From Torpedo marmorata (Eukaryota), in the NCBI GenBank assembly GCA_977017645.1, contig OZ360219.1, positions 179,552,001 to 179,616,000 of the forward strand: a stretch of DNA of 64,000 bases. Reading direction: 5' to 3'. A program made the position numbers and the translations under genes. Each line of letters begins with the position of its first letter. The stretch's first letter is position 1. Shown in pieces: positions 7,351-28,056 of this stretch. Below the pieces are notes generated by a model. It saw only the letters and a list, made by a program, of their open reading frames with translations. It did no database searches and was not told the origin of the DNA.

Positions 7351-7548
7351 GCCCTTTCTCGGTCCCCTTCGGCCTGGGGAGCTTTAGGTTGCATGTCTTG
7401 ACAAATGCCATACCTTCGTACAGTTTGCTCAATATCCATATCCAATAATAGTCCTGGCACCCCACAATAAACAACCTTCTTCAATAGTTATTTCATTCCT
7501 TCGGATATAGTAAGGTTTAAGGTCTGCCGAAATAGTGTCCCCTTCTGG

Positions 7549-10030
7549 ACTAGATGTAGGGTGCTACCTGGATGATATCATTATCACAGGACGAAACGAT
7601 ACAGAACATTTAACAAACCTGGAAAAAGTCCTAACACGACTACAACAAGCGAATGTCCGTCTGCGTCAAGACAAATGTGTATTTATGGTGCCCTCAGTAA
7701 CGTATTTAGGATTTACCATTAACAAGGAAGGCGTACAAATGAATGCAGCAGGTACTGAAGCCGTCAGAAAAGCACCTTGTCCAACCAGCAAAGCGGAGTT
7801 ACAATCGTTTTTGGGGTTAGTCAACCATTATCGAAAACACATTCCAGACATGTCTACTTGGTGCAACCCATTGAACCAGTTACTAAGAAAAGATCAAAAA
7901 TGGTACTGGAGTACAAAAGCAAATGATGCCTTTAACAAGTTAAAAAAACTATTAACTACGAGCAATAATATACTGGTCCACTACGATCCTAACAGAGAAG
8001 TAACCTTGGCGGTAGATGCCTCACCGGTGGGTCTAGGAGCAGTACTGTCACAAATAACAGAGAAAGGAGAACAACCAGTGGCGTATGCATCTCGATCCTT
8101 GACGGCTTGTGAACGCAATTATGCACAGTTAGAAAAGGAAGGACTAGCCATAATATTTGGAATCAAAAGATTCCACCAGTATTTATATGGAAGGAAATTC
8201 ACATTAGTAACGGACAACAAACCACTCAGTTTTATTTTGGGACCGAGAAAGGGCATTCCAGTATTGGCGGCAACCAGAATCCAGAGATGGGCAATAATGC
8301 TCGCCGCTTACGATTATGAGTTGAAACATAAACCAGCAACACAAAATGGACATGCCGATGCCTTGTCACGCTTACCTCTACCGGAAACGGGTCAAATGGA
8401 AGAGATAGTTCAATGGACATCAGAAGCCACAGCGATTAACCAAGAACAGCTTCGCCATCTGCCCATTACAGCCAAAATAATCAGTAAAGAAGTAAGAAAT
8501 GAACCCACACTGGCCAAGGTTTTGTATTTTACATTAAATGGATGGCCAGAAGGGGACACTATTTCGGCAGACCTTAAACCTTACTATATCCGAAGGAATG
8601 AAATAACTATTGAAGAAGGTTGTTTATTGTGGGGTGCCAGGACTATTATTCCCAGGAAATGGCAAAAGGACATATTGGCAGAACTTCATGATAACCATCC
8701 GGGAATAGTCCGCATGAAAGCGCTAGCCTGAATGCATGTTTGGTGGCCATCCATGGATATGGATATTGAGCAAACTGTACGAAGGTGTGGCATTTGTCAG
8801 GACATGCAACCTAAAGCTCCCCAGGCCGAAGCAAATCCATGGAAATGGCCGTCTCGACTATGGCACAGAATTCATGTAGATTTTGCAGGTCCATTTATGG
8901 GGGAGAATTTCTTGATTGTGGTTGACGCACACTCCAAATGGCCAGTGGTATCACAGATGCGTACAACAACAACCATCCAAACAATTGAAAGATTAAGAAC
9001 TATGTTTGCATCATATGGATTGCCAGTGGAATTGGTATCAGACAATGGTCCTCAGTTTACTTCGGATGTGTTTAAAATGTTCATGCGTAACAATGGTATA
9101 CGCCATGTACTTTCAGCACCGTACCACCCAAGTACTAATGGAGAAGCGGAGCGTTTTGTGCGAACATTTAAAAACGCAATGAAAGCAGGAAAATCGCTTA
9201 ACTTGTCGTGGAATCATAGAATAGCAAATTTCCTTGCAGGATATAGAAATACACCTCATTCAACAACTAAAAGAACGCCAGCAGAATTAATGTTTGGTCG
9301 AAATATTCGAACGTGGCTATCCGCAGTGCATCCGGATATCAGCGGTCGTATTGAACACGACACCTCACCAACTAAACCAACCCGATCTCTGGAAGTGGGT
9401 GAAAGAGTGTTGGCAAGAGATTACAGGAATAATAAGGAAACATGGATAAGAGGTGTTATCATTAAGAAGCTAAGCCCTTGCTCATATGCAATACAAGTAG
9501 AGAATAACATATGGAAACGACATATTGACCAACTGAGAGCAGTTGAAGATCCAATAATGACATTTCCCACAGATGAGCCGAAGAATTTGCCATTTTGGGT
9601 TAATGACGATGATGCTGATCTAGAAAGACAGACTAATGACGATGATGCTGATCTAGAAAGACAGACTCCAGATTCCAGTTTCCACTTTGAAGAAGATATT
9701 ACGGCAGAAAAGGCAAAGAGCCCAGAAAAGACAAAGAGTCCAGAAAAGGCAAAGAGTCCAGAAAAGGCAAAGAGTCCAGAAAAGACAAAGAGTCCAGAAA
9801 AGGCAAAGAGCCCAGAAAAGACAAAGAGTCCAGAAAAGGCAAAGAGTCCAGAAAAGGCAAAGAGTCCAGAAAAGACGAAGAGTCCAGAAAAGACGAAGAG
9901 TCCAGAAAAGACCAAGAGTCCAGAAAAGACAAAGAGTCCATTGGTTCCGACGGCTGTAGGGGATCCACCCCTAAGAAGATCACACCGTCAACGACGTCCG
10001 CCGGAACATTTGAGAGACTATGTACCCTGA
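7549..10030 (+). pseudogene. pol: Gypsy pol remnant (RT from CYLDD onward, RNaseH, integrase, repetitive C-terminal tail); single in-frame TGA at 8729-8731
   Basis: YLDD; DASPVGLGAVL and YAQLEKEGL; HPGIVRMK...CGIC; HVDFAGP...SDNGPQF...YHPSTNGEAER. ORFs 7535-8731 and 8732-10030 are contiguous in one frame (likely CGA>TGA). Confidence 0.95.
9707..9940 (+). repeat. 13 x 18-bp coding tandem repeat, EK(A/T)KSP, in the integrase tail
   Basis: Unit gaaaag(g/a)caaagagtcca; units 1-5 recur as 6-10 (AGC codon variant in units 1 and 6). Confidence 0.97.
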
Positions 10031-10213
10031 ATGATTTTTCACTATAGTGATTATCAGTATTATACGAACAGTTAGTAGTGGTAGTTTTACTTGCATGATT
10101 TTGTTTGTAGTTGTAGTTTCCCCGCTATATTCCAGTAGTTACAGTAGTTTACAAGTGATCGGGGAATATATAATCGTATAATAACAACCTATATTATGTG
10201 GGGGGGGGAAGAG

Positions 10214-10366
10214 TGTTGTATATGTAACGTATGACGTATGACGTAATGACGTCATACGCACTATATAAAGGGTAACGCTGAATACCATTTTAGTTTAGTA
10301 ATAAAGTATGAATGAAGACGGTCGTCTCGGTGTGTTATTGTATGCTTACACCCGAAATACACAACA
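10214..10366 (+). repeat. 3' LTR of Gypsy 7177-10366, preceded by a polypurine tract (about 10200-10213)
   Basis: Matches 7177-7329; PPT is a G-run plus AAGAG. Confidence 0.97.
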
Positions 10367-10869
10367 ACCCCCCTTCCCCCCCCCCTCACTCTTTTGTTCG
10401 GACGCCTGCCGGCATTTTCTCATACTTTGATGAAGGGCTCAAGCCCGAAACGTCAGTTATGTATTTCTACCTTTGCTACATAAAAGACACTGTTTGACCT
10501 GCTGAGTTTCTCCAGCATTTGTGTTTTTTACTTCAACCACGGTGTCTACAGATTTTCGTGATTTACTTCTGTCGTAGGTTGAGATTGCCAGGCATACGGC
10601 ATATGTGCTCAAAGCCTTCTTGAACCTCTGGTCAAAGTTGGCCCAAATAGATAAAAAGCACACAGGATTGGGTTTGGAAACTGGAAGCCATGCGTAATGA
10701 GCACACTGGAGACCTACACAAACAGCAGAAGGAGGGTATCACCTCACAACATTAACTACCCACCCACCAGCCTCATCTGAGGAAGAATCTGCAGTGCAAT
10801 ATTTAGCCCCAGAACCTAAAAGCCAGAGACAAAGTAAGTTACCCTCAATTCTAAGGGACTGCCAAAAAG

Positions 10870-11214
10870 GAGGAATAAGGAGATTTTCCCACAGTCTACC
10901 TACCACCCTGCACACAGCATCTTCCAGCTACTCCTGTCGGGAAAGAGATACAGGAGGATCAGAGCCAGAACCACCAGGCTGAGAAGCAGCTTCTTTCCAC
11001 GGGCAGAGAGACTGCTGAACGACTGAAGAACTGCTCATACAAACCCTCCATGACTCTGCTATTTATTTACCAATAAGATTTATTTATTTAATATTTGTAT
11101 ATACATACTGTGCATATGTATCGTTTGTCTGTATGTGTGTTATGTCTGTATGTGTTTTTGCAGTGTTTTACACCGAGAACCAGACAATGCTGTTTTATCG
11201 GGTTGTACATGTAC
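10870..11214 (+). mobile_element. Rex1/Babar LINE 3' end; its tail resumes at about 18099-18135 after the BEL insertion
   Basis: HSIFQLLLSGKRYRRIRARTTRLRSSFFPRAERLLN; 3' UTR matches 49940-50160. Confidence 0.8.
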
Positions 11215-11790
11215 TGTAGTGACTTCAATCCAACAAATAGTCACTTGGAGGCCAGGTGAGATATTTGTTCTTGACACGTTTCAATTAATTTACTAACAAG
11301 TCCAATAGGTTCAAAAAACTATATTTACACACGATGACTTGTAGCAATCTTCAATGACTTAAATATCTTCTTTAAACGAAATTTAAACAATTCTTGATAA
11401 CGATGTTTAATAAATTCCTTTAAACGATTCCTTTAACATTCACTTAAACATCCTTTAAATGGTTCCTTTAAACGTCTTTAAATGGTCGATGAAAGATATA
11501 ACCATCTCACTCACCCTCCTCTGTTGCCATATTCTAATACAACCTCTCCTCCCCCCGACTCGCGCATGCTCTAACTCGCATGCTCCACCGCGCATACTAC
11601 ACCGCGCATACTTCACCGCGCATACTGCCGTCTCTTCCCAACTGCGCATGCTCCAGCCACTTCCAACTGCGCATGCGCCCGTCAGCACTCCCGCGCATGC
11701 GCAGAGCACTAAATAGGCCCAGCACGGCCTCCTCCGAAACCCGCTGAGACCATCGGAGCGCCGCGATTAAGGTAAGTAACCAAGCTTACA
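11215..11790 (-). repeat. 3' LTR of BEL element
   Basis: TGTAGTGAC...AAGCTTACA; adjacent minus-strand PPT-like TAGGGGCTGC; homologous to 16416-16436 plus 17508-18093. Confidence 0.93.
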
Positions 11791-12014
11791 GCAGCCCCTA
11801 ATTATTATAATTAGACACAATGTCTTAAATAATAATTACACAATCAATTACAAATAACAATAACCATATAACATTCAAACAATATATAAATCTTCTTTCT
11901 TCTTTCTTCATAAGACCAGAGTTTACCATAACTCTGAATCAACAAAAGTCTGTAACCTGTGAAGTATACAACAACAAATAAAGTCAGTTTGTATTTATCA
12001 AAGTTCCTTCGTCT

Positions 12015-12180
12015 CCAACAGAAGGCAGACCTTGTTAATAGGTCTATTTAGAAAGCCGGTCTTAGTTTTAATTCGAACTTGACGCACAAGTCCTCTTTTG
12101 TCCTGAATAGTCTCAATAATTTTTCCAAGTAACCAGGAGTTTCGAGGAGCTGAATCGTCCATAATAATTACAATGTCTCC
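12015..12180 (-). pseudogene. BEL integrase C-terminal remnant (DUF5641-like)
   Basis: Manual translation: GDIVIIMDDSAPRNSWLLGKIIETIQDKRGLVRQVRIKTKTGFLNRPINKVCLLLE. Confidence 0.85.
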
Positions 12181-12233
12181 TCAAAGTTCTTTTATCTCCA
12201 GAATCTTTGAGTTGAAACGTCAACCAGTAAACC

Positions 12234-12845
12234 TCAAACCTTCCTCAGACAAAATAGATACAGTTTTTCTTCAGCATGTCGTTTCACTTTATTCCTTTCT
12301 TCAGTATTCCACTTCTTATGTGAAGAATTTAAACTCTTAGAACTAGAATTTGAATATTTATCTGATCCTCTTGATTTTAATAAACAAGTCTCCTTAACCA
12401 CTCTGGTTGCTATTGTCTTTTCCAGCAATTCCAAATCCAATTTTGCAACTTTCAATTCAGTCTTAGTTCCTTCCGAGAAATTAATAACTTGATCTGAAGT
12501 GAAAATATCATGTGATACATTGATATTTCTATTGTCAACCCTGCTGTGGTAAACTTGAAATGTTTGAATTTCTTCATATTGCTTGTTACATTTCTGCAAT
12601 GCAATATCACATTCTTTCTGCATTGTTAGTAGCTGAACATTCAATTTACATTCTTGATTGTTTTCTATAATCAACTGTTTTGTGTTATTAACCAATAACT
12701 TGTTCTCTTTCAAAATATTAATCTCTTCCTCCAACATTTTACATTTTGATAATGCTGAATCTCTTTCTTCAATAACTGTATTTATTTCTTCAGCAGTCAT
12801 TCCTTTCTTCCGCCTTTGACTTTGAGAATTTTAAATACAATTAAA
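12234..12845 (-). pseudogene. Coiled-coil coding segment inside BEL; 12543-12845 resembles vertebrate MIPOL1 (captured fragment)
   Basis: MTAEEINTVIEERDSALSKCKMLEEE...NN..QLIIENNQE...LL.MQ...EEIQTFQVYHS is collinear with MIPOL1 as recalled (TAEEM..LIEERDAALSKCKRLEQE...ENNQERALK..LL.MQ...EEIQTLRVYYS). Confidence 0.72.
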
Positions 12846-13172
12846 TCTTTCTGTTTACTGTTTTCATGATTATCTAATATTTCCAATTCTCCTTTCAACA
12901 TTTTGTTCTCTGCATTCAATTGCAGTAAATTATCATTCACATTCTTCTTTATTCCATCAGCACAATTTCCTGTGTTCTCCAGTTTTACATCTCATGCAAC
13001 ATTTCTTCATTGATTTTGTCTGTTGTAACCTCTGAACTACAAAATCTACTTTCAGATTTGTTCTCAGTCACTTGTTTTATTCTTGCCTCTGATTCAATTA
13101 CACATGAATAATCAATAGTATTATTTTAACATCTTCTAATACTTCATTTTCATCCATTTCTGATGAAAATAA

Positions 13173-15968
13173 TTATTTCAATGTTGTTTTAAATACTTTT
13201 GATTTATTTTCACATTGATCTATTTTCTTTTCTTCAAAAGTAACTTTCTTATTCACAGTCTTTTGCTCTTCCCTTAACTCATCAACTTTCACAGCCGAAA
13301 TCCTGTTAATATTTATCACTAACTGTTCCTTAGCAATATCATTATTTCTTTCTAATGGTCCATTGATTGTCCAACCAAGCTTGGTTCTAAAAGCGTAAGG
13401 TCCATTCCCTCTACTCCGTATTACTTCTAGTGGTTCCAAAACCTTTGGCACATCTGAACCAATCAGCATTTCTATCTCAGAGTTAACTTCAGGTAGACAA
13501 ACATTTTTCAGATAAGACCACCATTTAATATCATTTGGATGAGGAATGTTTCCTTCATGCACAGGCATAGTCTTCTGAGTCTATAAACTTGGAAGATCAC
13601 AAATTTCTTTTGTCATACAATCCAGCAACCTCTAAGCCTGAAACAATGCTGGTTTCAACTACCTTTTCTTGTCCCATGGTTTTCAACATAATTCTGGACC
13701 TTCTTCCTTGAATATTAAGTTTGTTCATTAGACCTTCCGTGCAAAAAGATGCAGTGCTGCCTGGGTCTAGAAATGCATATGTATATACTGTTGCATCCCC
13801 TTTCTTGGTCTTGACTTGTACAGGCACTATTGAAAGTTTGCAGTTATCCACACCGGCCCCGGTAAGACCACTTGCCTGAACCGAGGCTATAACATTGTTT
13901 TCCGATGTTTCCTTTGTTTCTGTTTGCTCCTTTTCCAATTCCTTGTTTCTTTGATGGATATGCAACATTCTAGGATGTTTCAACTTGCATATGTTACAAT
14001 TAAGTCGCTTCTTGCAGTTTTTACTGATATGCCCTTTACACAAACAACTAAAACATATTCCATTTTCCTTTAAAAAAGCGATCTTCTCATTATGTTCCTT
14101 CTTTTCCAACCGTAAACACATTTCTAAAGCATGTCCACCTTTACAGAACAAACAACTCTTCTCATTAGGCAAACTTTCCTTTTCCTTATTTACTTTGTCC
14201 TTTTCTTTATTTATAACTGACACATTAGTAGCAAAAGTACTCCTTTTCAATTTCGGACTAGGCTGTGAGTTAGACCTCCTTACATCTTTGCCCATTGGTC
14301 TCTGGTATTTCCATATATTGGATCTGTTTCAATGTACACCTGTCGTTCAAGAAAATTTACCAAGTCCTTTAAATTAGTTCTTCGACTGTAATTTTCTTGT
14401 ATATCACAAGCCAAATTTCTCCATCTATCCCACAACTTGTAAGGTAATTTTTCTAAGATGATTTGCATATTACCAGGCACGTCAAGCTCACGAATATTAT
14501 CGATATCTTCCATGGCATTACAACATCCTCTTAAAAATAGAGTATATGCTTGTAGAGCCTTTACATCATTCTGTTTTATTGATGTCCATTTAAGAGCTTT
14601 ATCCATATAAGCTAAAGCAATTCGATGCTTGTTGCCAAAATGTTGTTCTAGTAAAAGCCTTAGCTCTGTCTAATCCTCTTTCTGAGGACATATGTTGACA
14701 ACTCTTTACAAGTTCTTTTGGATGTCCCTTTGTGAACATTTCCAAATAATAAAGACATTCATCATGATCTTGGCATTTATTTTCAATATTGCGTTTGAAA
14801 GATCTCATGAACGATTGGTACTGAAGTGGATCACCATCAAAAGTTTGTATCTCTTTCTTGGGTAAAGAAGAGAGAGTCTGTAACTGATTCAATGATGTAG
14901 CAATTTCATTTTGTCTTCCTTTGTTACAGGTAATGTATCTGGAAACCTCACTGGTGTAGTTTCTCCCATATTTCTGATACTTGACTCAAATGACAAGGGA
15001 GCTGCATCGTTTGACCGAACCCAAGATGCAGCTTTGTCTTCAGATGTTACCACTGGTACATGTGACTCGATACCACTATGCTCTTGAAAGATTTGTCCTT
15101 GTATTTGCAAGTCTTGTACCCTTGGTACTAAAATATCTACACTTTTGGTTGGTTTATTTTCCTGTGACTCTTATTTTAAATATGACCTTTTATTATCAGA
15201 TACTTTAGATCAAGCACCAAATACCATTGAGCCTTCTAGTACCTCTTTTTTTGCCTTGGCAATAGTAATGTTTGCTTCCAGCTCCTGCAGCTCCTTTCTC
15301 TGCCTTAGCTGCTCCTTCTCTTGCCTTAGCTGCTCCTAGTTCTGCCTTAGCTGTTGCCATAGCTGCTCCTCGAGCTGCTCCTCCTTTTGCCTCAGCTGCT
15401 CCTCCTGTTGTTCTAAAATATGTTTATCCTTAAACGTTTTTTGTTGCGCAAGAAGAGTGGCCAAGTTAACTTCAATCTTTGTATGTGACGATGCAGAACT
15501 TGAAGTACGAGAAACTCTGGAGCTCAAACCAGAACTTTGTTTGCTTCTCCTGCTTTCAGCATTTGAGACACTGTCACATGCTTGTATTTCATCCTGCAGG
15601 TCAGATGTTATCTTTTTACTGACCTCTTTCTCCAATCCGAATTGTACATCCTTTGCATCTTCATCCTCTTTGTTTTCTTCATCATTTGATGACACAATTT
15701 CAGCCATTTCCACGTTGCTGTCTTCATGTTCATTCGTTGTCTTTTGCAATGAGTTTGCAATTTCTTCATTCCCATCAACCGAAGCCGTTTGTTCTTCCAT
15801 TGCCAGCTTCAGCCTTTCAATGAGAACCCTTTTATTTCCACTTGTATCTAGTTTCTGTCGCTTCAATTCTTCTTTAAGATCCACAACCTTCATGTCTTCA
15901 ATACGTTGGTCCTCAACAGCAACATCAGCTGCCGCTGCGTCAGCTGCTGCTGCAGCCATTTTACTCAT
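13173..15968 (-). pseudogene. gag: BEL gag-protease, broken by stops and frameshifts; N-terminal SAP domain at 15798-15902
   Basis: ORFs 15336-15968, 14599-14892, 14280-14606, 13597-14295 and 13173-13568 are collinear BEL gag/PR pieces; MKVVDLKEELKRQKLDTSGNKRVLIERL fits the SAP consensus. Confidence 0.9.
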
Positions 15969-16436
15969 CTTGTTCTACCGTCCTTCGAGCATACACAACA
16001 CTAGCCAAATCAACAGTCTCCAATGGACTAGAAGCAGCAAATCCAATCTGTGTTCAAACTTGTCAAAGATACACAGGAGTCCACAGACTTATACCTACCA
16101 CTTCAGATGACTGTAATGGGCTGCTATTCACAAACGAGTTTCCACCACAGCATCTGTCAATAATATCGCTGATTTTCAAGAAATGGTTTCTCCAACGTAT
16201 TTATAGGAAACTTTACTATACGATTTGAAGCTCTATATTCCTCTCTGGCTGTTACTCATGGCATATGGATGTGGATTACAAACTGCCACTAACTCGAGGC
16301 ATCTCCAAGATGTCCGCCATCTTATTTTAAATATCAGTCCAAAGCACAGAGATATTATTCTATCTTCTTTCCTTCAATTTTCTGTTCCAAACAATAATGT
16401 TTTCATTGACTAAAATATAGTGACTTCAATCCAACA

Positions 16437-17495
16437 AGACCAATCCAGTCCAGACCTTCTGAAATGTCTGCCTTCTTCCACAAATGTGGCTTCCCCTCCA
16501 CCACCATCAACTCAGCCCTCACTCACCTCCTCCATTTCCCGCTCATCTGCCCTGGCCCCCTCTGCCCCCAGACGCAACAAACATAGAATCCCCCTCATTC
16601 TCACCTACCACCCCAACAGCCTCCGCATCCAACACATTATCCGCCGGAATTTCCGACACATTTTTCCTTCTCCTCCCCTCTCGGCCTTCCGCAGAGACCC
16701 CTCCCTCCGCGATTCCCTCATGCACTCATCCCTCCCCACCCATCGCACCCCCGGCACCTTCCCCTGTGCCCGCAGGAGGTGCAACACCTGCGCCCACACC
16801 TCCCCCCTCACCACGGTCTGGGGCCCCAAACAGGCCTTTCAAGTGAAACTACACTTCACTTGTACATCCAGAGAACTTATTTACTACATCCGGTGCTCCC
16901 TTTGTGGCTTTCTCTACATCGGAGTGACCGATCGTAGATTGGGGGATCGCTTTGCTGAGTACCTCCTCTCTATCCGAAACAACAGCGACCTCCCAGTAGC
17001 CAGCCATTTCAATGCCGAGTCACACTCCCACACTCACATGTCTGTCCATGGCCTTATGTACTATCCCACCCAGACTACCCGCAAATTGGAGGAACAACAT
17101 CTCATTTTCCGTCTGGGCACTCTCCAGCCAGATGGCATTAACATTGACTTTTCTGCCTTCCACTAAACCTGCTTGTCTTTTCCTTCCCCTCCCCCCTCCT
17201 TCCTGTTTTTTTACACCCACCCAGCCATCCCTCCTCCCCCTCTTTGCTGCTGTCCCCTCCCTCCTTTCTCCACCTATCATCTCCTGCCTTTGCCACCCCC
17301 CCCTTCCCCCCCTCACTCTTTTGTTCGGACGCCTGCCGGCATTTTCTCATACTTTGATGAAGGGCTCAAGCCCGAAACGTCGGTTATGTATTTCTACCTT
17401 TGCTACATAAAAGACACTGTTTGACCTGCTGAGTTTCTCCAGCATTTGTGTTTTTTACTTCAACCACGGTGTCTACAGATTTTCGTGTTTTACTT
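16437..17495 (+). mobile_element. 5'-truncated Penelope (Neptune-type) copy: Cys linker, GIY-YIG and pLTR
   Basis: ORF 16420-17166 is highly similar to the C-terminus of 24511-28056; 12-bp TSD TTCAATCCAACA (16425-16436, 17496-17507). Confidence 0.94.
17348..17390 (+). ncRNA. Minimal hammerhead ribozyme-like motif in Penelope pLTR (also 10421-10460, 24327-24368, 28241-28282; minus-strand copies near 7040-7080 and 45115-45155)
   Basis: UUGAUGA-a-GGGC(ucaa)GCCC-GAAAC-GUC: core with C3>U, 4-bp stem II, palindromic ACGU; minimal hammerheads are known from PLEs. Confidence 0.65.
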
Positions 17496-18139
17496 TTCAA
17501 TCCAACATATAGTCACTTGGAGGCTAGGTGAGATACTTGTTCTTGACGCGTTTCAATTAATTTACTAACAAGTCCAATTGGTTCAAAATACTTTATTTAC
17601 ACACGATGAATTGTAGCAATCTTCAATGACTTAAATATCTTCTTTAAACAAAATATAAACAATTCTTGATAACAATGCTTAATAAATTCCTTTAAACGAT
17701 TCCTTTAACATTCATTTAAACGTCCTTTAAATGGTTCCTTTTAACGTCTTCAAACGGTCAATGAAAGATATAACCATCTCACTCACCCTCCTCTGTCGCC
17801 ATATTCTAATACAACCTCTCCTCCCCCCGATTCGCGCATGCTCCAACTCGCATGCTCCACCGCGCATACTCCACCGCGCATACTGCACCGCGCATACTTC
17901 ACCGCGCATACTGCCGTCACTTACCAACTGCGCATGCTCCAGCCACTTCCCCACTGCGCATGAGCCCGTCGGCACTCCCACGCATGCGCAGAGCACTAAA
18001 TAGGCCCAACACGGCCTACTAACTTCCGCGTCTCCTCCAAAACCCGCTGAGACCATCGGAGCGCCGCGATTAAGGTAAGTAACCAAGCCTACGGCTCTTA
18101 CATGTACAATTGAATGATAAATGAACTTAAACTAGAGTC

Positions 18140-21805: not shown

Positions 21806-24510
21806 TGCACTTATCAATAACCACCTTAGCTATTTTCCCAGATGTATCATTAGAATATCCATTGTGCTGGTCTCTGCTCTTCTCAAAACACAGCACAGGG
21901 TCAAAAATGATATCTGCTGTGACTAACAGTAACTTTGGTTCTTACAATTCTGATCTCTTCCTCCAGAGTGCAAATACATCAGGCTTCCCTCATTTACTCC
22001 ACTCCATTCATCTTTGAAAACCTTTCCAAAACATATTAATCTAACCCTCTATATCCAATTCTGTGTTCTCATTGTGAGGTACCGTGAAGTCCCTTCTGAA
22101 TTCAAGGCACCACATTGGTGTTCTTATCAAAGAGGATTTCTGTTCCCTTGAGACTTTCTGAAGTTTGCACTTTATGGAACTCCAACTGTAGCCTGTGGCA
22201 ACATAAATTCTAGATGGAGAAGTGAACCCCTGTCTCAGAATCCCATCAGTACCATTGACTACTGACCAATCAGAAATACAGAAATTGATCAGGAACTTCA
22301 GCTTCACTCTGGTTTCTCTTCTGAAAGTTGAACACCGTTACCAGATATTATCAACCCAAAACATATTTTCTCTCTGCAGCTGTTGCATGTCCTGCTGAGT
22401 ATTTTCTGTTTTTATTTTGGATTTTTGGCATCTACAGTTTTTTTGTCAGTTTTTATGTCAGTTAATGGTAAAAGGAAAGCGAGGGACAAAATTGGTCCCT
22501 TAGAGAATCAGAGCGGAAAACTGTGTGTGGAGCCTAGAGAAATGGGGGAGATATTGAACAGTTTCTTTTCTTTGGTATTCACCAAGGAGAAGGATATTGA
22601 GATATGCGAGATAAAAAGAGCAAATTGGGTAAATATGGAGAATATAGGGATTACGAAAGATGTAGTGTTAGGGCTTTTGAGGCATATAAAGGTGGATAAG
22701 TCTCCGGGACCCGACGGGATCTTCCCCAGGACCTTGAGAGAAGTAAGTGAAGAACTAGCAGAGGCTCTGACGGTGATTTTCCAAATGTCATTAGAGATGG
22801 GGATAGTGCTGGAGGATTGGCGTATTGCGCATGTGGTTCCGTTATTTAAAAAGGGTTCAAGGAGAAAGCCTGGCAATTATCGGCCTGTAAGTTTGACGTC
22901 TGTGGTAGGTAAATTAATGGAGAAAGTTCTCAGTGATAGTACTTATAAATATCTGGATAGACAGGGTCTGATCAGGAACTCTCAACACGGAGTTGTGAGC
23001 GAAAGGTCCTGTTTGACCAATCTGATTGAATTTTTTGAAGAGGTGACTAGGAATGTGGATGAGGGTAGCACAGTGGATGTTGTCTATATGGACTTCAGTA
23101 AGGCCTTCGATAAGGTTCCGCATGGAAGGTTAGTTAGGAAGGAGCAGTCTTTAGGTATAAATTCTGAGATAGTCAAATGGATTGAACATTGGCTGGAAGG
23201 GAGAGGCCAGAGAGTGGTAGTGGATAATTGTCTGTCAGGTTGGAGCCGGTGACCAGCGGTGTGCCTCAGGGATCTGTATTGGGCCCATTGTTGTTCGTTA
23301 TATATATCAATGATCTAGATGATGGGGTGGTAAACTGGATTAGTAAATATGCAGATGATACTAAGATAGGTGGAATAGTGGATAATGAAGAAGGTTTTCA
23401 AGGATTGCAGAGGGATTTGGGCTGCTTAGAAAAGTGGGCTGAAAAATGGCAGATGGAGTTTAATGCTGATAAGTGTGAGGTGCTTCATTTTGGTAAGAAG
23501 AATCAGAACAGGACATATGTAGTAAATGGGAGAGCATTGATGAATACAGAAGAGCAGAAAGATTTAGGAATAACGGTGCATCGTTCCCTGAAGGTGGAAA
23601 CTCATGTCAATAGGGTGGTGAAGACCACCAGACACATTTTTCCTTCTCCTCCCCTCTCGGCCTTCCGTAGGGACCGCTCCCTCCGTGATTCACTCGTGCA
23701 CTCGTCCCTCCCCACCCATCGCACCCCCGGAACCTTCCCCTGTGCCCGCAGGAGGTGCAACACCTGCGCCCACACCTCCCCCCTCACCACGGTCCAGGGC
23801 CCCAAACAGGCCTTCCAAGTGAAACTACACTTCACTTGTACATCCAGAGGACTTATTTACTGCATCCGGTGCTCCCTTTGTGGCTTTCTATACATTGGAG
23901 AGACCAGTCGTAGATTGGGAGACCGCTTTGCTGAGCACCTCCTCTCCGTCCGCAACAACAGCGACCTCCCAGTAGCCAACCATTTCAATTCTGGGTCACA
24001 CTCCCACACTCACATGTCTGTCCATGGCCTCATGTACTATCCCACCCAGACTACCCGCAAATTGGAGGAACAACATCTCATATTCCGTCTCGGCACTCTC
24101 CAGCCAGATGGAATTAACATTGACTTTTCTGCTTTCCACTAAACCTGCTTGTTGTTCCCTTCCCCTCCCCCTCACCTGTCCTTCCTGTTTTTTTCCACCC
24201 AACCAGCCATCCCTCCTCCCCCTCTTTGCTGCTGTCCCCTCCCTCCTTTCTCCACCTATTATCTCCTGCCTTTCCCACCCCCCTTCCCCCCTCACTCCTT
24301 TGTTCGGACGTCTGCCGGCATTTTCTCATACTTTGAAGAAGGGCTCAAGCCTGAAACGTCGGTTATGTATTTCTACCTTTGCTACATAAAAGACACTGTT
24401 TGACCTGCTGAGTTCTCCAGCTTTTGTGTTTTTTACTTCAACCACGGTGTCTACAGATTTTCGTGTTTACTTTTGAATTCTACAACAACTCTGTGAAAAC
24501 TCTTTGAGGG

Positions 24511-27500
24511 ATGCCTACCCTGAAGAAGTTCGCCTTTGCTCTCCGAAGGGAGTTCTGTGGGATTCTCTCTCACTGCTCCCCATCTGCAACCCCTGCTGCT
24601 CTCAAGCTCTACGACCATGTACTCACCCAGACTCGATTCCACAGCCACGTTGCCTTCCTTGCTACTTGCCTCCGCCGTCATCTTGTGCCTCGTGGTTTCC
24701 AGCTTCGATTCCAGGCCTCGCAGTTTGGCCCCCGCAAAGATCTCAGGTACCTCCACAGCATCGACTGCTGCTCTCTCCGCTTCTCCCAAAGAATCCTCCG
24801 CACCACCCTCACCTCGATGCGGAGATACCAGCGGCAACTCGCCCTCTCCCTGCCACAGCTCCAGACCTCGCTAGCCATGGCCTGCAGCGGACCCCTCCTA
24901 TACTACATCCGCCGCCGGATCCACGCGTTCAACCGCCGGCTCTACACCTACCTGGCGTCCATCAAGAACCGTAAGCTTGCCTCCCTTGAAACTGCAGCCG
25001 CTGCGACCCTCCACGTGGATCCCCATCTCGGCCCCGGCCGCCTGCTCTCCGGAGCTCCCAACGCCGCATCCGCCGACCCAATCCCTGGTCCCAGCCTCCG
25101 ACTCACCGGAGCTCCCCACGCCGCAGCCGCCGACCCGAACCTGGACCCCGGCCGCGACTTACCCGAGCTTCCAACGCGACGGCTGCCGACCCGACCCTGG
25201 ACCCCAGCCACCGACTCAACGGAGCTCCCAACGCCGCAGCCGCCGACCCGATCCCTGGTCCCGGCAGCCGACTCACCGGAGCTCCCAACGCGATGGCTGC
25301 CGACCCGACCCTGGGCGCCGGACGCCGACTCACCGAAGCTCCCAACGCCGCAGCCGCCTGCTCCTACCCGCAACCCGGGCACCGACACGACGGTACTCCC
25401 GACGCTACGGCCGCCAACCCCAGCCCGGACCCCGAGCCTCTACTCACCAGAGTTCCCAATGCCTCCACCGCCGACTCCCGACACAGACTGTTACCTGCTG
25501 GAGCCTCCCACGCTGACTGCCACTGGAGTCCTCATCTCGCAACAAGATCCCACTTACCTATCCCCCTCACTACTCCTTCCTTCTCCTCCCACACCTCTCC
25601 CTACTCCACCCCCATCTCCCCCTCTCTGCCCCACTCTCCTCCCCAACCCTCAGACCTCATCCCTTCCCTTCCCTCCATCCCCCCCCTCTCTCTGGCTACC
25701 CTCCCTACCCCCCTCTCCCACCCTCCCACCTCCCCTACCCCCCACCTCCCCCCTCCGACCCCCCCTCCCCCTCCCTCCAACCTCCCCCACCCTCCACATC
25801 CCCCCTCTGACCTCCCCAACTCTCCCCCTCCCCCCAACACCCTCCACAACACCGATCCCCACTCTAACCCCTGCTTGGTTTTTACCATCCCCTCCGACCT
25901 TCCCCTCTCTGAGACGGAGCGCTCCGTCCTCAGTAGAGGCCTCACCTTCGTCCCCCTCCGCCCACACCTCAACGAATTCCGCGCACGCCATGATGCCGAA
26001 CTCTTCCTCCGTCGCCTCCGCCTCCGTGCTCACTTCCATGACCGTGATTCTCCACCCCCCCACCCAAGACCCTTTCTCCAGCTTCAAGCCTTCTTCCTCT
26101 TCCTGGACACCCTGCCCTGGCCAGCTGCCCGCTCTGGACCTTTTTATTTCCAACTGCCGCCGAGACATCAACCGTCTCAACTTCACCACCCCCCTCTCGT
26201 ATTCCAACCTCACCTCCTCAGAACGCTCTGCCCTCCACTCTCTCCGCAACAATCCCAACCTCACCATCAAACCTGCAGACAAGGGCGGTGCGGTTGTGGT
26301 CTGGCGCACTGACCTCTACCTTGCCGAGGTCAGTCGACAACTCTCAGACACCTCCTCCTACCGACCCCTCCCACAGGACCCCACCACAGCACATCAAGCC
26401 ACTGTCTCCAACACCATCTCCGACCTCATCACCTACGGTCACCTCCCCTCCACGGCCACCAACCTCATTCTCCCCCACCCCCGCACTGCCCGTTTCTACC
26501 TTCTACCCAAGATACACAAACCCAACCATCCGGGCAGACCCATTGTTTCTGCCTGCTCCTGCCCCACCGAACTAGTTTCATCTTACCTTGACTCCATCTT
26601 TTCTCCCCTGGTCCAATCCCTCCCCACCTACATCCGCGACACCTCACATGCCCTCCATCTCCTCGATGACTTCAGATTCCCTGAACCGGACCGCATCATC
26701 TTCACCATGGATGTCCAATCCCTTTATACCTCTATCCCCCACACAGAAGGTCTGAAAGCACTTCGCTTCTTCCTGGACCAAAGACCCGACCAGTCACCCT
26801 CTACCACCACTCTCCTCCGCCTGGCAGAACTTGTCCTTACTCTCAATAACTCCTCCTTCAACTCATCCCACTTCCTCCAAATCAAAGGAGTAGCCATGGG
26901 TACCCGCATGGGTCCCAGCTACGCCTGCCTGTTTGTGGGCTTTGTGGAGCAATCCATGCTGCAAGCCTACACAGGCAAGACCCCTCATCTCTTCCTTCGG
27001 TATATCGACGACTACATCGGGGCTGCCTCATGCACCCACGATGAGCTTGTCAACTTCATCCACTTCGCATCCAACTTTCACCACGATCTCAAACTCACCT
27101 GGTCCATCTCCGATAACACTCTCCCCTTCCTGGATCTCTCTGTCTCCATCTCGGGAGACAAGCTTTCCACCGACATTTACTACAAACCCTCCAACTCCCA
27201 CAACTATCTGGACTACACATCCTCACACCCTGTCCCCTGCAAGGACTCCATCCCCTTCTCTCAATTTCTCTGCCTCCGCCGCATCTGTTCCCAAGATGAG
27301 GTGTTCCACTCCAGATCTTCTGAAATGTCTGCCTTTTTCCACAAACGTGGCTTCCCCTCCACCACCATCAACTCAGCCCTCACCCGCATCTCCTCCATTT
27401 CCCGCTCATCTGCCCTGGCCCCCTCTGCCCCCAGACGCAACAAACATAGAATACCCCTCATCCACACCTACCACCCCACCAGCCTCCGCATCCAACACAT

Positions 27501-28056
27501 TATCCGCCGGAATTTCCGGCACTTGCTGCAGGATCCCACCACCAGACACATTTTTCCTTCTCCTCCCCTCTCGGCCTTCCGTAGGGACCGCTCCCTCCGT
27601 GATTCACTCGTGCACTCGTCCCTCCCCACCCATCGCACCCCCGGAACCTTCCCCTGTGCCCGCAGGAGGTGCAACACCTGCGCCCACACCTCCCCCCTCA
27701 CCACGGTCCAGGGCCCCAAACAGGCCTTTCAAGTGAAACTACACTTCACTTGTACATCCAGAGGACTTATTTACTGCATCCGGTGCTCCCTTTGTGGCTT
27801 TCTATACATTGGAGAGACTGGTCGTAGATTGGGAGACCGCTTTGCTGAGCACCTCCTCTCCGTCCGCAACAACAGCGACCTCCCAGTAGCCAACCATTTC
27901 AATTCTGGGTCACACTCCCACACTCACATGTCTGTCCATGGCCTCATGTACTATCCCACCCAGACTACCCGCAAATTGGAGGAACAACATCTCATATTCC
28001 GTCTCGGCACTCTCCAGCCAGATGGAATTAACATTGACTTTTCTGCTTTCCACTAA
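24511..28056 (+). CDS. Penelope RT and GIY-YIG endonuclease polyprotein (1181 aa; about 25160-26060 is read in a shifted frame)
   Basis: KPADKGG, LPKIHK...GRPIVS, TMDVQSLYT, GVAMG, RYIDD, LPFLD, CARRRCNTC linker, LIYCIRC...YIGETGR...RFAEH. Confidence 0.9.
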   Translation: MPTLKKFAFALRREFCGILSHCSPSATPAALKLYDHVLTQTRFHSHVAFLATCLRRHLVPRGFQLRFQASQFGPRKDLRYLHSIDCCSLRFSQRILRTTLTSMRRYQRQLALSLPQLQTSLAMACSGPLLYYIRRRIHAFNRRLYTYLASIKNRKLASLETAAAATLHVDPHLGPGRLLSGAPNAASADPIPGPSLRLTGAPHAAAADPNLDPGRDLPELPTRRLPTRPWTPATDSTELPTPQPPTRSLVPAADSPELPTRWLPTRPWAPDADSPKLPTPQPPAPTRNPGTDTTVLPTLRPPTPARTPSLYSPEFPMPPPPTPDTDCYLLEPPTLTATGVLISQQDPTYLSPSLLLPSPPTPLPTPPPSPPLCPTLLPNPQTSSLPFPPSPPSLWLPSLPPSPTLPPPLPPTSPLRPPLPLPPTSPTLHIPPLTSPTLPLPPTPSTTPIPTLTPAWFLPSPPTFPSLRRSAPSSVEASPSSPSAHTSTNSAHAMMPNSSSVASASVLTSMTVILHPPTQDPFSSFKPSSSSWTPCPGQLPALDLFISNCRRDINRLNFTTPLSYSNLTSSERSALHSLRNNPNLTIKPADKGGAVVVWRTDLYLAEVSRQLSDTSSYRPLPQDPTTAHQATVSNTISDLITYGHLPSTATNLILPHPRTARFYLLPKIHKPNHPGRPIVSACSCPTELVSSYLDSIFSPLVQSLPTYIRDTSHALHLLDDFRFPEPDRIIFTMDVQSLYTSIPHTEGLKALRFFLDQRPDQSPSTTTLLRLAELVLTLNNSSFNSSHFLQIKGVAMGTRMGPSYACLFVGFVEQSMLQAYTGKTPHLFLRYIDDYIGAASCTHDELVNFIHFASNFHHDLKLTWSISDNTLPFLDLSVSISGDKLSTDIYYKPSNSHNYLDYTSSHPVPCKDSIPFSQFLCLRRICSQDEVFHSRSSEMSAFFHKRGFPSTTINSALTRISSISRSSALAPSAPRRNKHRIPLIHTYHPTSLRIQHIIRRNFRHLLQDPTTRHIFPSPPLSAFRRDRSLRDSLVHSSLPTHRTPGTFPCARRRCNTCAHTSPLTTVQGPKQAFQVKLHFTCTSRGLIYCIRCSLCGFLYIGETGRRLGDRFAEHLLSVRNNSDLPVANHFNSGSHSHTHMSVHGLMYYPTQTTRKLEEQHLIFRLGTLQPDGINIDFSAFH
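25051..25500 (+). repeat. 57-bp GC-rich coding tandem repeat (about 8 decaying units) in the Penelope N-terminal region
   Basis: Anchors at 25051, 25108, 25164, 25221, 25278, 25335; the second unit is 56 bp. Confidence 0.85.

Follow-up and report, generated by a model that had tools for sequence, protein, structure and literature searches.

The element at positions 11215-18102, on the minus strand, of the window (the whole stretch of 64,000 nucleotides of Torpedo marmorata DNA that was analysed) would be, with a probability that we place at about 0.78, a dead copy of a BEL/Pao family of several thousand copies, in which pol has been replaced by spliced BRCA1, back-spliced MIPOL1 and Elongin A (ELOA) sequences that would have been captured by template switching, and which would have been mobilised by sister elements that retain the reverse transcriptase (RT). 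The initial annotation of this DNA had described a non-autonomous family in which host sequence stands in for pol and shares a single frame with Gag-protease, and this description has held; the back-splice junction and the scale of the family were absent from it.

Anatomy of the element

The element has TG..CA ends, is flanked by a 5-bp target duplication and carries the two LTRs that had been recognised at first sight, which differ by 5.8%. The left end proposed at that time stands, while the right end, placed at 18093, moves to 18102 in view of the TG..CA ends and the duplication (11210-14/18103-07). Its parts are as follows:

11210..11214 (no strand): left copy of the 5-bp target-site duplication
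11215..11790 (-): 3′ LTR
11791..11997 (-): 3′ untranslated region and polypurine tract, also in RT-bearing sisters
11998..12181 (-): last ~55 integrase codons (DUF5641), behind a fixed stop; duplicate of the integrase end, non-coding
12182..12202 (-): last integrase codons and stop, fused in frame to the Elongin A piece; the family frame ends here
12203..12399 (-): Elongin A (ELOA) pieces, two exons, 82-87% identical to the host exons
12399..12543 (-): MIPOL1 upstream exons, Narcine residues 295-322 and 350-374, with an internal in-frame deletion, positioned after the downstream exons
12543..12544 (-): back-splice junction, from the donor after residue 553 to the proximal AG of the tandem acceptor before residue 295
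12544..12845 (-): MIPOL1 downstream exons, residues ~450-553, three, intronless, 83-87% identical to the host exons
12841..13267 (-): BRCA1 pieces, two spliced exons (four in older copies), 74-80% identical to the host exons
13263..13944 (-): BEL/Pao protease region, 88% identical to an RT-bearing sister
13945..15806 (-): BEL/Pao Gag, with coiled repeat, DUF1759 and Cys/His knuckles; stops and frameshifts in the window copy
15807..15990 (-): SLTM exon-1-derived 5′UTR, start codon (15959) and SAP domain (15807-15902)
15991..16414 (-): leader, common to RT-bearing sisters
16415..16437 (-): 5′ LTR, inner end
16438..17495 (+): later Penelope-like 3′ fragment with a ~12-nt duplication and a weak GIY-YIG match (E 0.02), private to the window copy
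17496..18102 (-): 5′ LTR, rest
18103..18107 (no strand): right copy of the 5-bp target-site duplication

The Pfam matches above cut-off in the element are SAP (PF02037, E 7e-10), with which Gag begins, as had been seen, and DUF5641, the integrase tail (E 2e-13); those to DUF1759 and, weakly, to the aspartyl protease lie below it. The Gag-protease, whose retention had been reported, is of BEL type, with 83-88% DNA identity to loci that carry Peptidase_A17 and DUF5641. Pfam found no RT in the element, and the RT, the RNase H and the integrase core that mark an autonomous member are indeed absent, 3,189 nt of an RT-bearing sister copy being missing, so that we are dealing with a non-autonomous BEL/Pao derivative. 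The replacement segment (12203-13267) is same-strand and AT-rich and of the ~1 kb described, but instead of the single coiled coil that had been read into it, it contains three genes. The last ~55 integrase codons are preserved, but not, as had been thought, as part of the polyprotein, because they follow a stop that is fixed in 25 of 25 copies of the window form; the open frame whose extent from SAP to this tail had been put forward for testing ends at the last codons of the integrase, before the 55-codon tail. This copy, with its many stops and frameshifts, is dead, as had been concluded, and its 5′ LTR is interrupted by the 1.06-kb Penelope-like piece (16438-17495). No canonical primer-binding site was recognised, there being no TGG-type site after the 5′ LTR when this region was viewed without a tRNA set.

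Elsewhere in the window, a 25-nt satellite occupies positions 1-2712 in 108 copies, and a Gypsy-type pol remnant lies at 7514-10030 (+), with an integrase tail in which an 18-nt repeat codes for a run rich in Lys-Ser-Pro-Glu. The stretch at 24508-28056 (+), open for 1,182 codons, is one that we take, from its motifs, to be a Penelope-like element, and ahead of it (22332-24142) lies what is presumably a CR1-like fragment joined to the 3′ end of a Penelope.

Origin of the host-gene cargo

Homologue searches of the replacement identified MIPOL1 (E 4e-34), Elongin A (E 7e-71) and BRCA1 (E 2e-74), the closest named proteins being those of the electric ray Narcine bancroftii, and this clear similarity settles the question, raised at first, of whether the segment resembles host genes at all; host capture had been proposed for two pieces, SAP and the coiled coil, and the cargo comes from three genes. 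The Elongin A piece is also matched by Pfam Elongin_A, while the MIPOL1 and BRCA1 pieces are unnamed by Pfam; a search of solved structures returned generic SAP matches only, and an Atlas look-up gave MIPOL1 clusters and no fused cluster, a blank that is uninformative there.

After the protease, the cargo runs through four BRCA1 exons, two successive sets of three MIPOL1 exons and then five ELOA exons, up to the integrase end, and introns are missing at 3 BRCA1, 5 MIPOL1 and 4 ELOA junctions, which shows that all the pieces are of spliced origin. Identity to the host exons is ~90-100% in the copies with the longest cargo (B, defined below) and 74-87% in the window copy. At non-CpG sites the B copies differ from the host by 4.2-6.7%; and because B shares 3 of the 11 host-derived residues and 1 of the 29 Narcine-derived ones, the capture is placed, from these sequence comparisons, on the T. 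marmorata lineage, early after or near its split from Narcine.

The four capture joints other than the back-splice fall in mid-exon. Microhomology of 1-4 nt is found at BRCA1|MIPOL1 and at most deletions, fillers of 11-20 nt occupy three joints, and the ends of the cassette have neither poly(A) nor a target duplication. ELOA is separated from the MIPOL1 stub by a 14-nt filler (B/I copies, for example L024:6912-6930) whose first 10 bases are those that begin the LTR of the same copies, which could reflect auto-integration or a switch of the plus-strand primer. As an observation apart, a Narcine BRCA1 isoform (P0213) starts with ~190 Gypsy-like Gag residues where the RING domain should be, and is probably an annotation artefact.

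The back-splice junction of MIPOL1

In the cargo, MIPOL1 residues 437-553 run straight into residues 295-385. The host gene has a GT donor directly after residue 553 and, 206 kb upstream, a tandem acceptor directly ahead of residue 295; the copies read the donor and the proximal acceptor of the tandem, exact to the base. Each of these exons is single within the 330-kb host region, the remaining matches being copies of the element. Linear mRNA contigs of another organism leave the cassette at this point into the next exon, and enter it from the previous exon. The exons beyond the circled block match the host gene only and have not been retro-copied, the forward junction after residue 553 gave 0 matches, and the missing arc of the circle (residues 382-418) matches the host gene only and is nowhere retro-copied; the absence of both forward junction and arc is as for a single captured arc. 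The cargo thus has a non-colinear junction at splice sites and nothing from outside the circled exons, the two marks of a circRNA-derived pseudogene.

The circled exons are flanked by introns of 50 kb and 62 kb, and long flanking introns favour back-splicing. Both ends of the circled block (residues 295-553) are in phase 2, so the circle would be a stop-free frame, and the back-splice would be in frame without selection for this same reason. In mouse, an exonic circ-Mipol1 is listed (PMC9888537), in passages that do not give its exons. From the arrangement of the sequence, a circular RNA is the likely and simplest template for the permuted MIPOL1. No RNA source was listed for the junction. The junction contigs, from runs presumed to be of RNA, resemble element copies, no circular RNA being observed among them, and in two distant organisms only pieces of host mRNA were found at the junction, which is no proof of absence. 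Rolling-circle copying was considered and rejected: the three-fold repeat of MIPOL1 (405 nt, in frame, in the copy L032) has mid-exon joints, as befits a local duplication, and the missing arc is nowhere retro-copied.

Size, variants and age of the family

The possibility, raised at the outset, that the cargo was a later insertion private to the window copy is contradicted by a search of the 6.2-Gb genome with the replacement segment, which gave 5,134 first-look candidates, 40 of which were scored and contained 41 matches at 90-100% identity. A 19-mer spanning the back-splice has 4,707 exact matches in the genome, and its reversed control has 0. This number is a floor; the copy number is estimated at ~8,000-12,000, because the exact 19-mer is present in only 26 of 44 copies chosen without that pattern and in 2 of 5 located in introns of the host genes. 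These 5 cassette copies in 560 kb of host-gene DNA are well over the 1-2 per Mb implied genome-wide, and four cassette copies (L054, L055, L063, L070) lie in introns of MIPOL1 itself.

Seventy-seven copies were mapped: that of the window, 20 found by DNA likeness, 23 found by protein or gene searches, which favour open frames, and a further 33 taken from the pattern list, of which 13 were chosen for a junction variant and 20 spread over the list. They form a ladder of deletions, with B (22 copies, the longest cargo), an intermediate form (20) and A (34, the window type), one tandem-repeat copy being excluded from these counts. Median LTR-pair divergence is 8.0% in B (n=8), 8.6% in the intermediate form (n=12) and 5.25% in A (n=22), a few of these pairs being non-LTR repeats; none of the sampled cargo copies lies below 3.4%. 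Target duplications of 5 bp flank 11 of the 17 copies whose two ends could be located by motif, and the switch points are shared among copies, as in secondary transposition. Some cassette elements are doubled or nested (L026, L110, L147), and a variant carries the 5′ part of the large ELOA exon ahead of BRCA1 (L109:5750-6123, L110:5936-6221), in frame in both; the displaced piece of L109 starts at the exon's first base and adjoins a LINE insertion, so that an ELOA back-splice cannot be judged there.

The cassette is also found on contigs of two other organisms, and in one of these, where a contig spans the BRCA1|MIPOL1 joint and the back-splice, the host MIPOL1 differs at 2 of 30 bases from that of T. 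marmorata; judging by these contigs, the cargo family probably spans more than one species.

RT-bearing sisters and the SLTM-derived start of Gag

An autonomous partner, for which a search had been recommended, was sought with the PF05380 profile, which yielded 6,618 candidates in the genome. Among the 20 loci fetched, five consist of one ORF of 2,018-2,134 codons with SAP, RT, RNase H and integrase, the domains of these sisters being DUF1759, DUF1758, RT, Peptidase_A17, integrase and DUF5641. RT-bearing loci of the same genome share the leader, the Gag-protease and the 3′ end with the window at 83-86%, as well as the LTR ends; the LTR pairs of eleven of them are 0-2.4% apart, in a sample biased to young loci. 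In a protease tree of 59 rows (12 A rows and the window kept; midpoint root, no clade test), RT-bearing rows are nested among cargo rows at three places. The sisters would thus be the helpers that mobilise the cargo elements in trans, and gag-protease may have been exchanged repeatedly between the two.

The closest single-domain relatives of the element's SAP are SLTM/SAFB proteins. Over 185 nt, including 5′UTR and start codon, a B copy is 80.5% identical to exon 1 of the host SLTM (E 7e-44), and the window copy 69.6%; the copies continue into SLTM exon 2 without an intron. These alignments show that the start of Gag and its SAP derive from SLTM exon 1. Because the divergence of this part in B (13.7%) exceeds that of the cargo, the SLTM capture is the older. 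SAP is close in 14 of the 20 RT-bearing loci, diverged in 3 more, and none was found in 3, which overturned a provisional idea that sister lineages lacked it; since 17 of 20 begin Gag with SAP, this domain, host-derived as had been supposed, was taken up by the parent lineage and is not cargo of the derivative. The SLTM-derived start of Gag is then a separate, lineage-wide capture. The pN/pS of SAP is 0.41-0.50 against the host (33 codons, small numbers that include change in the host), and in 4 of the 7 B-copy starts that were read SAP has been lost in frame with the SLTM start kept. SAFB and SLTM act as suppressors of both L1 and LTR elements (Ilik et al. 2024, PMC10901741); here it is SLTM that has given the element its start codon and SAP, and the element took the DNA-binding SAP part only, with no RRM.

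Reading frame and selection

Of 317 splice junctions, 308 are in frame, as is the back-splice in 75/75 (74/75 with stricter windows). Among the recurrent non-splice junction types, 13 of 14 keep the frame in the majority of the copies that carry them (binomial p 6e-6 against 1/3), types that are not fully independent and were defined after the first frame data had been seen; the bias also holds in the 33 copies chosen by DNA pattern alone. The 14 do not count types known from two copies (of which four keep the frame and one does not), a pair of mixed groups at the ELOA end, one containing the shift of the window copy itself, or the joint that follows the fixed stop. The type that departs from the rule is the last B-type junction, in frame in 2 of 13 copies and frame-breaking in 11, and one type is in frame in only 29/42. 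An apparent +1 shift at BRCA1(306)|MIPOL1 was discarded as an alignment artefact, 44 of 49 being in frame. Private indels of the cargo are multiples of three in 15 of 84 cases; among small indels shared by at least 3 copies 7/17 are and 10/17 are not (low counts, with one artefact), and among those in at least 7 copies all are bar one artefact.

In the passage from B to A, the lineage-fixed codon changes of the cargo include 0 stops in 96, against ~4.5% of private changes (p 0.012). Fixed changes in the cargo have an N:S of 61:25, no different from private ones (p 0.29), and in Gag-protease of 108:84 (p 5e-8 against private); pN/pS is 0.70 and 0.49, respectively, with a neutral yardstick of 0.81-0.84. 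The cargo amino acids are thus drifting almost neutrally and Gag-protease is constrained, a constraint that may have been imported from the helper via recombination. Variants shared among B cargos, with N/S of 1.33 versus 3.14 (p 0.025), hint at constraint at the protein level. In one natural copy, 1,261 codons can be read without interruption from SAP to Elongin A, and in two others 1,061 and 907; none of the natural copies examined was open as far as the final stop. Among the window-type copies, 8 of 34 have a stop close to where the ELOA piece ends; it is not clearly tied to any sub-lineage (the best of 159 tests gave p 0.009) and its frequency falls in the range of decay at other mutable sites, although it may be inherited. 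From the kept frame, the lack of fixed stops and the near-neutral amino acids it would follow that selection favours the readability of the RNA more than the cargo protein.

Possible origins of the cassette and of its frame

In the RT-bearing particle, the reverse transcriptase would have switched templates onto co-packaged host RNAs, that of MIPOL1 being likely a circular rather than a trans-spliced RNA, and the resulting cassette would have replaced pol in frame with Gag-protease. Mass copying in trans by the sisters, exchange of gag-protease with them, and successive deletions that kept the frame would then have followed. The frame would be preserved as the RNA must be translated nearly to its end, whether because an early stop would expose it to nonsense-mediated decay or because it has to provide Gag-protease in cis, and would not be due to a job for the cargo protein.

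A linear template for the permuted MIPOL1, through trans-splicing, a tandem exon duplication since lost, or a switch between two linear mRNAs at exon edges, appears quite improbable to us: the exons are single-copy in the host gene, both ends lie at splice sites to the base when the four other capture joints are mid-exon, the long introns that favour back-splicing flank the block, and a circular Mipol1 has been reported in mouse. It is true that less than one turn of the circle is present in the copies and that the three middle bases of the joint also occur at both linear MIPOL1 junctions; a switch between two linear mRNAs could yield these three bases too, with a chance of ~0.2% on a crude estimate, and there is also the warning that non-colinear junctions can arise by other routes (PMC4897178). 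That the cassette was first built by a LINE, as a chimeric retrocopy, or at the DNA level, and only later entered the LTR element, seems very improbable. LINE-like ORFs are abundant in the window and in the loci, and the LTR-like 14-nt filler suggests more than one step; against this, the cassette ends without poly(A) or target duplication and contains internal coding exons only, that same filler points to the machinery of the LTR element itself, and short microhomologies at some of the joints fit the template-switch model of PMC5131818.

As regards the frame, it could have been kept since the fused protein serves the element, for instance if the MIPOL1 coiled coil dimerised the protease or docked the particle. 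The lack of fixed stops, a pN/pS slightly below the yardstick, the depletion of amino-acid changes among shared B variants and the MIPOL1 core found in every copy studied would all agree with this; yet the last is built in, the copies having been found through that core, the fixed changes are indistinguishable from neutral, and in successive variants each of the three cargos loses much of its length, the Elongin A domain being among what is deleted, so that we hold it to be unlikely. Rather doubtful, too, is a bolder scenario, in which the LTR lineage took a start codon and a constrained SAP from SLTM, of a suppressor family, in order to tether itself to chromatin or compete there, the fusion of ~1,300 residues from circRNA, BRCA1 and Elongin A worked for the element and out-copied its helper, and some ten thousand antisense or decoy templates were left against three host genes. 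Selection for a readable RNA, in an element built by template switching and copied by its sisters, is the reading that we prefer.

Comparison with known systems

The initial annotation knew of no description of such an element. LTR-mediated capture of several genes and exon shuffling have in fact been described, with a template-switch model and multi-gene chimeras such as maize Bs1, of 1-5 copies (Tan et al. 2016, PMC5131818), which carries three captures (PMC13317346). In searches of the main text of open-access papers, no report was found of this family, of back-spliced cargo in a BEL/Pao element or of an SLTM-derived Gag start, nor any published case that unites multi-gene LTR capture and a circRNA pseudogene at such scale with a kept frame.

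With autonomous BEL/Pao elements (Belpaoviridae), the family shares the LTRs, the 5-bp duplications and a single ORF with DUF1759 and DUF1758, and differs in that Gag in this lineage starts with a captured SLTM exon (SAP) and that the derivative is without pol. Like the cases of LTR-mediated retroposition and Bs1 in PMC5131818, where one mosquito example involves a BEL element, it has partial intronless pieces from several parents between LTRs, microhomology at some of its joints and non-autonomous secondary transposition; unlike them, it counts at least 4,707 copies, against the 1-5 of Bs1, has graded deletion variants that keep the frame, and has one cargo that is back-spliced, the string "circ" appearing nowhere in the main text of that paper.

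The mouse circRFWD2 pseudogenes, with 33 high- and 9 low-confidence copies, are associated with LTRs by a mechanism called "mysterious" (Dong et al. 2016, PMC4897178), a study that left open how circular RNAs without poly(A) enter the genome. Our family resembles them in the non-colinear exon junction in genomic DNA, the lack of poly(A) and the LTR association, and differs in that the junction is embedded in a full element that has LTRs, target duplications, Gag-protease and a helper, and is fused to two further genes. A base-exact back-splice within a complete LTR element, amid mid-exon switch points, is the footprint expected of copying in an LTR particle. The thousands of dated copies, with their deletion ladder, amount to an extensive natural experiment on what makes non-autonomous LTR elements preserve an open frame, and, as look-alikes of BRCA1, MIPOL1 and ELOA, will confuse gene annotation, the mapping of reads and the calling of circRNAs in these rays. 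The family thus links LTR-mediated retroposition with circRNA-derived pseudogenes, and does so on a scale that exceeds the published cases by two orders.
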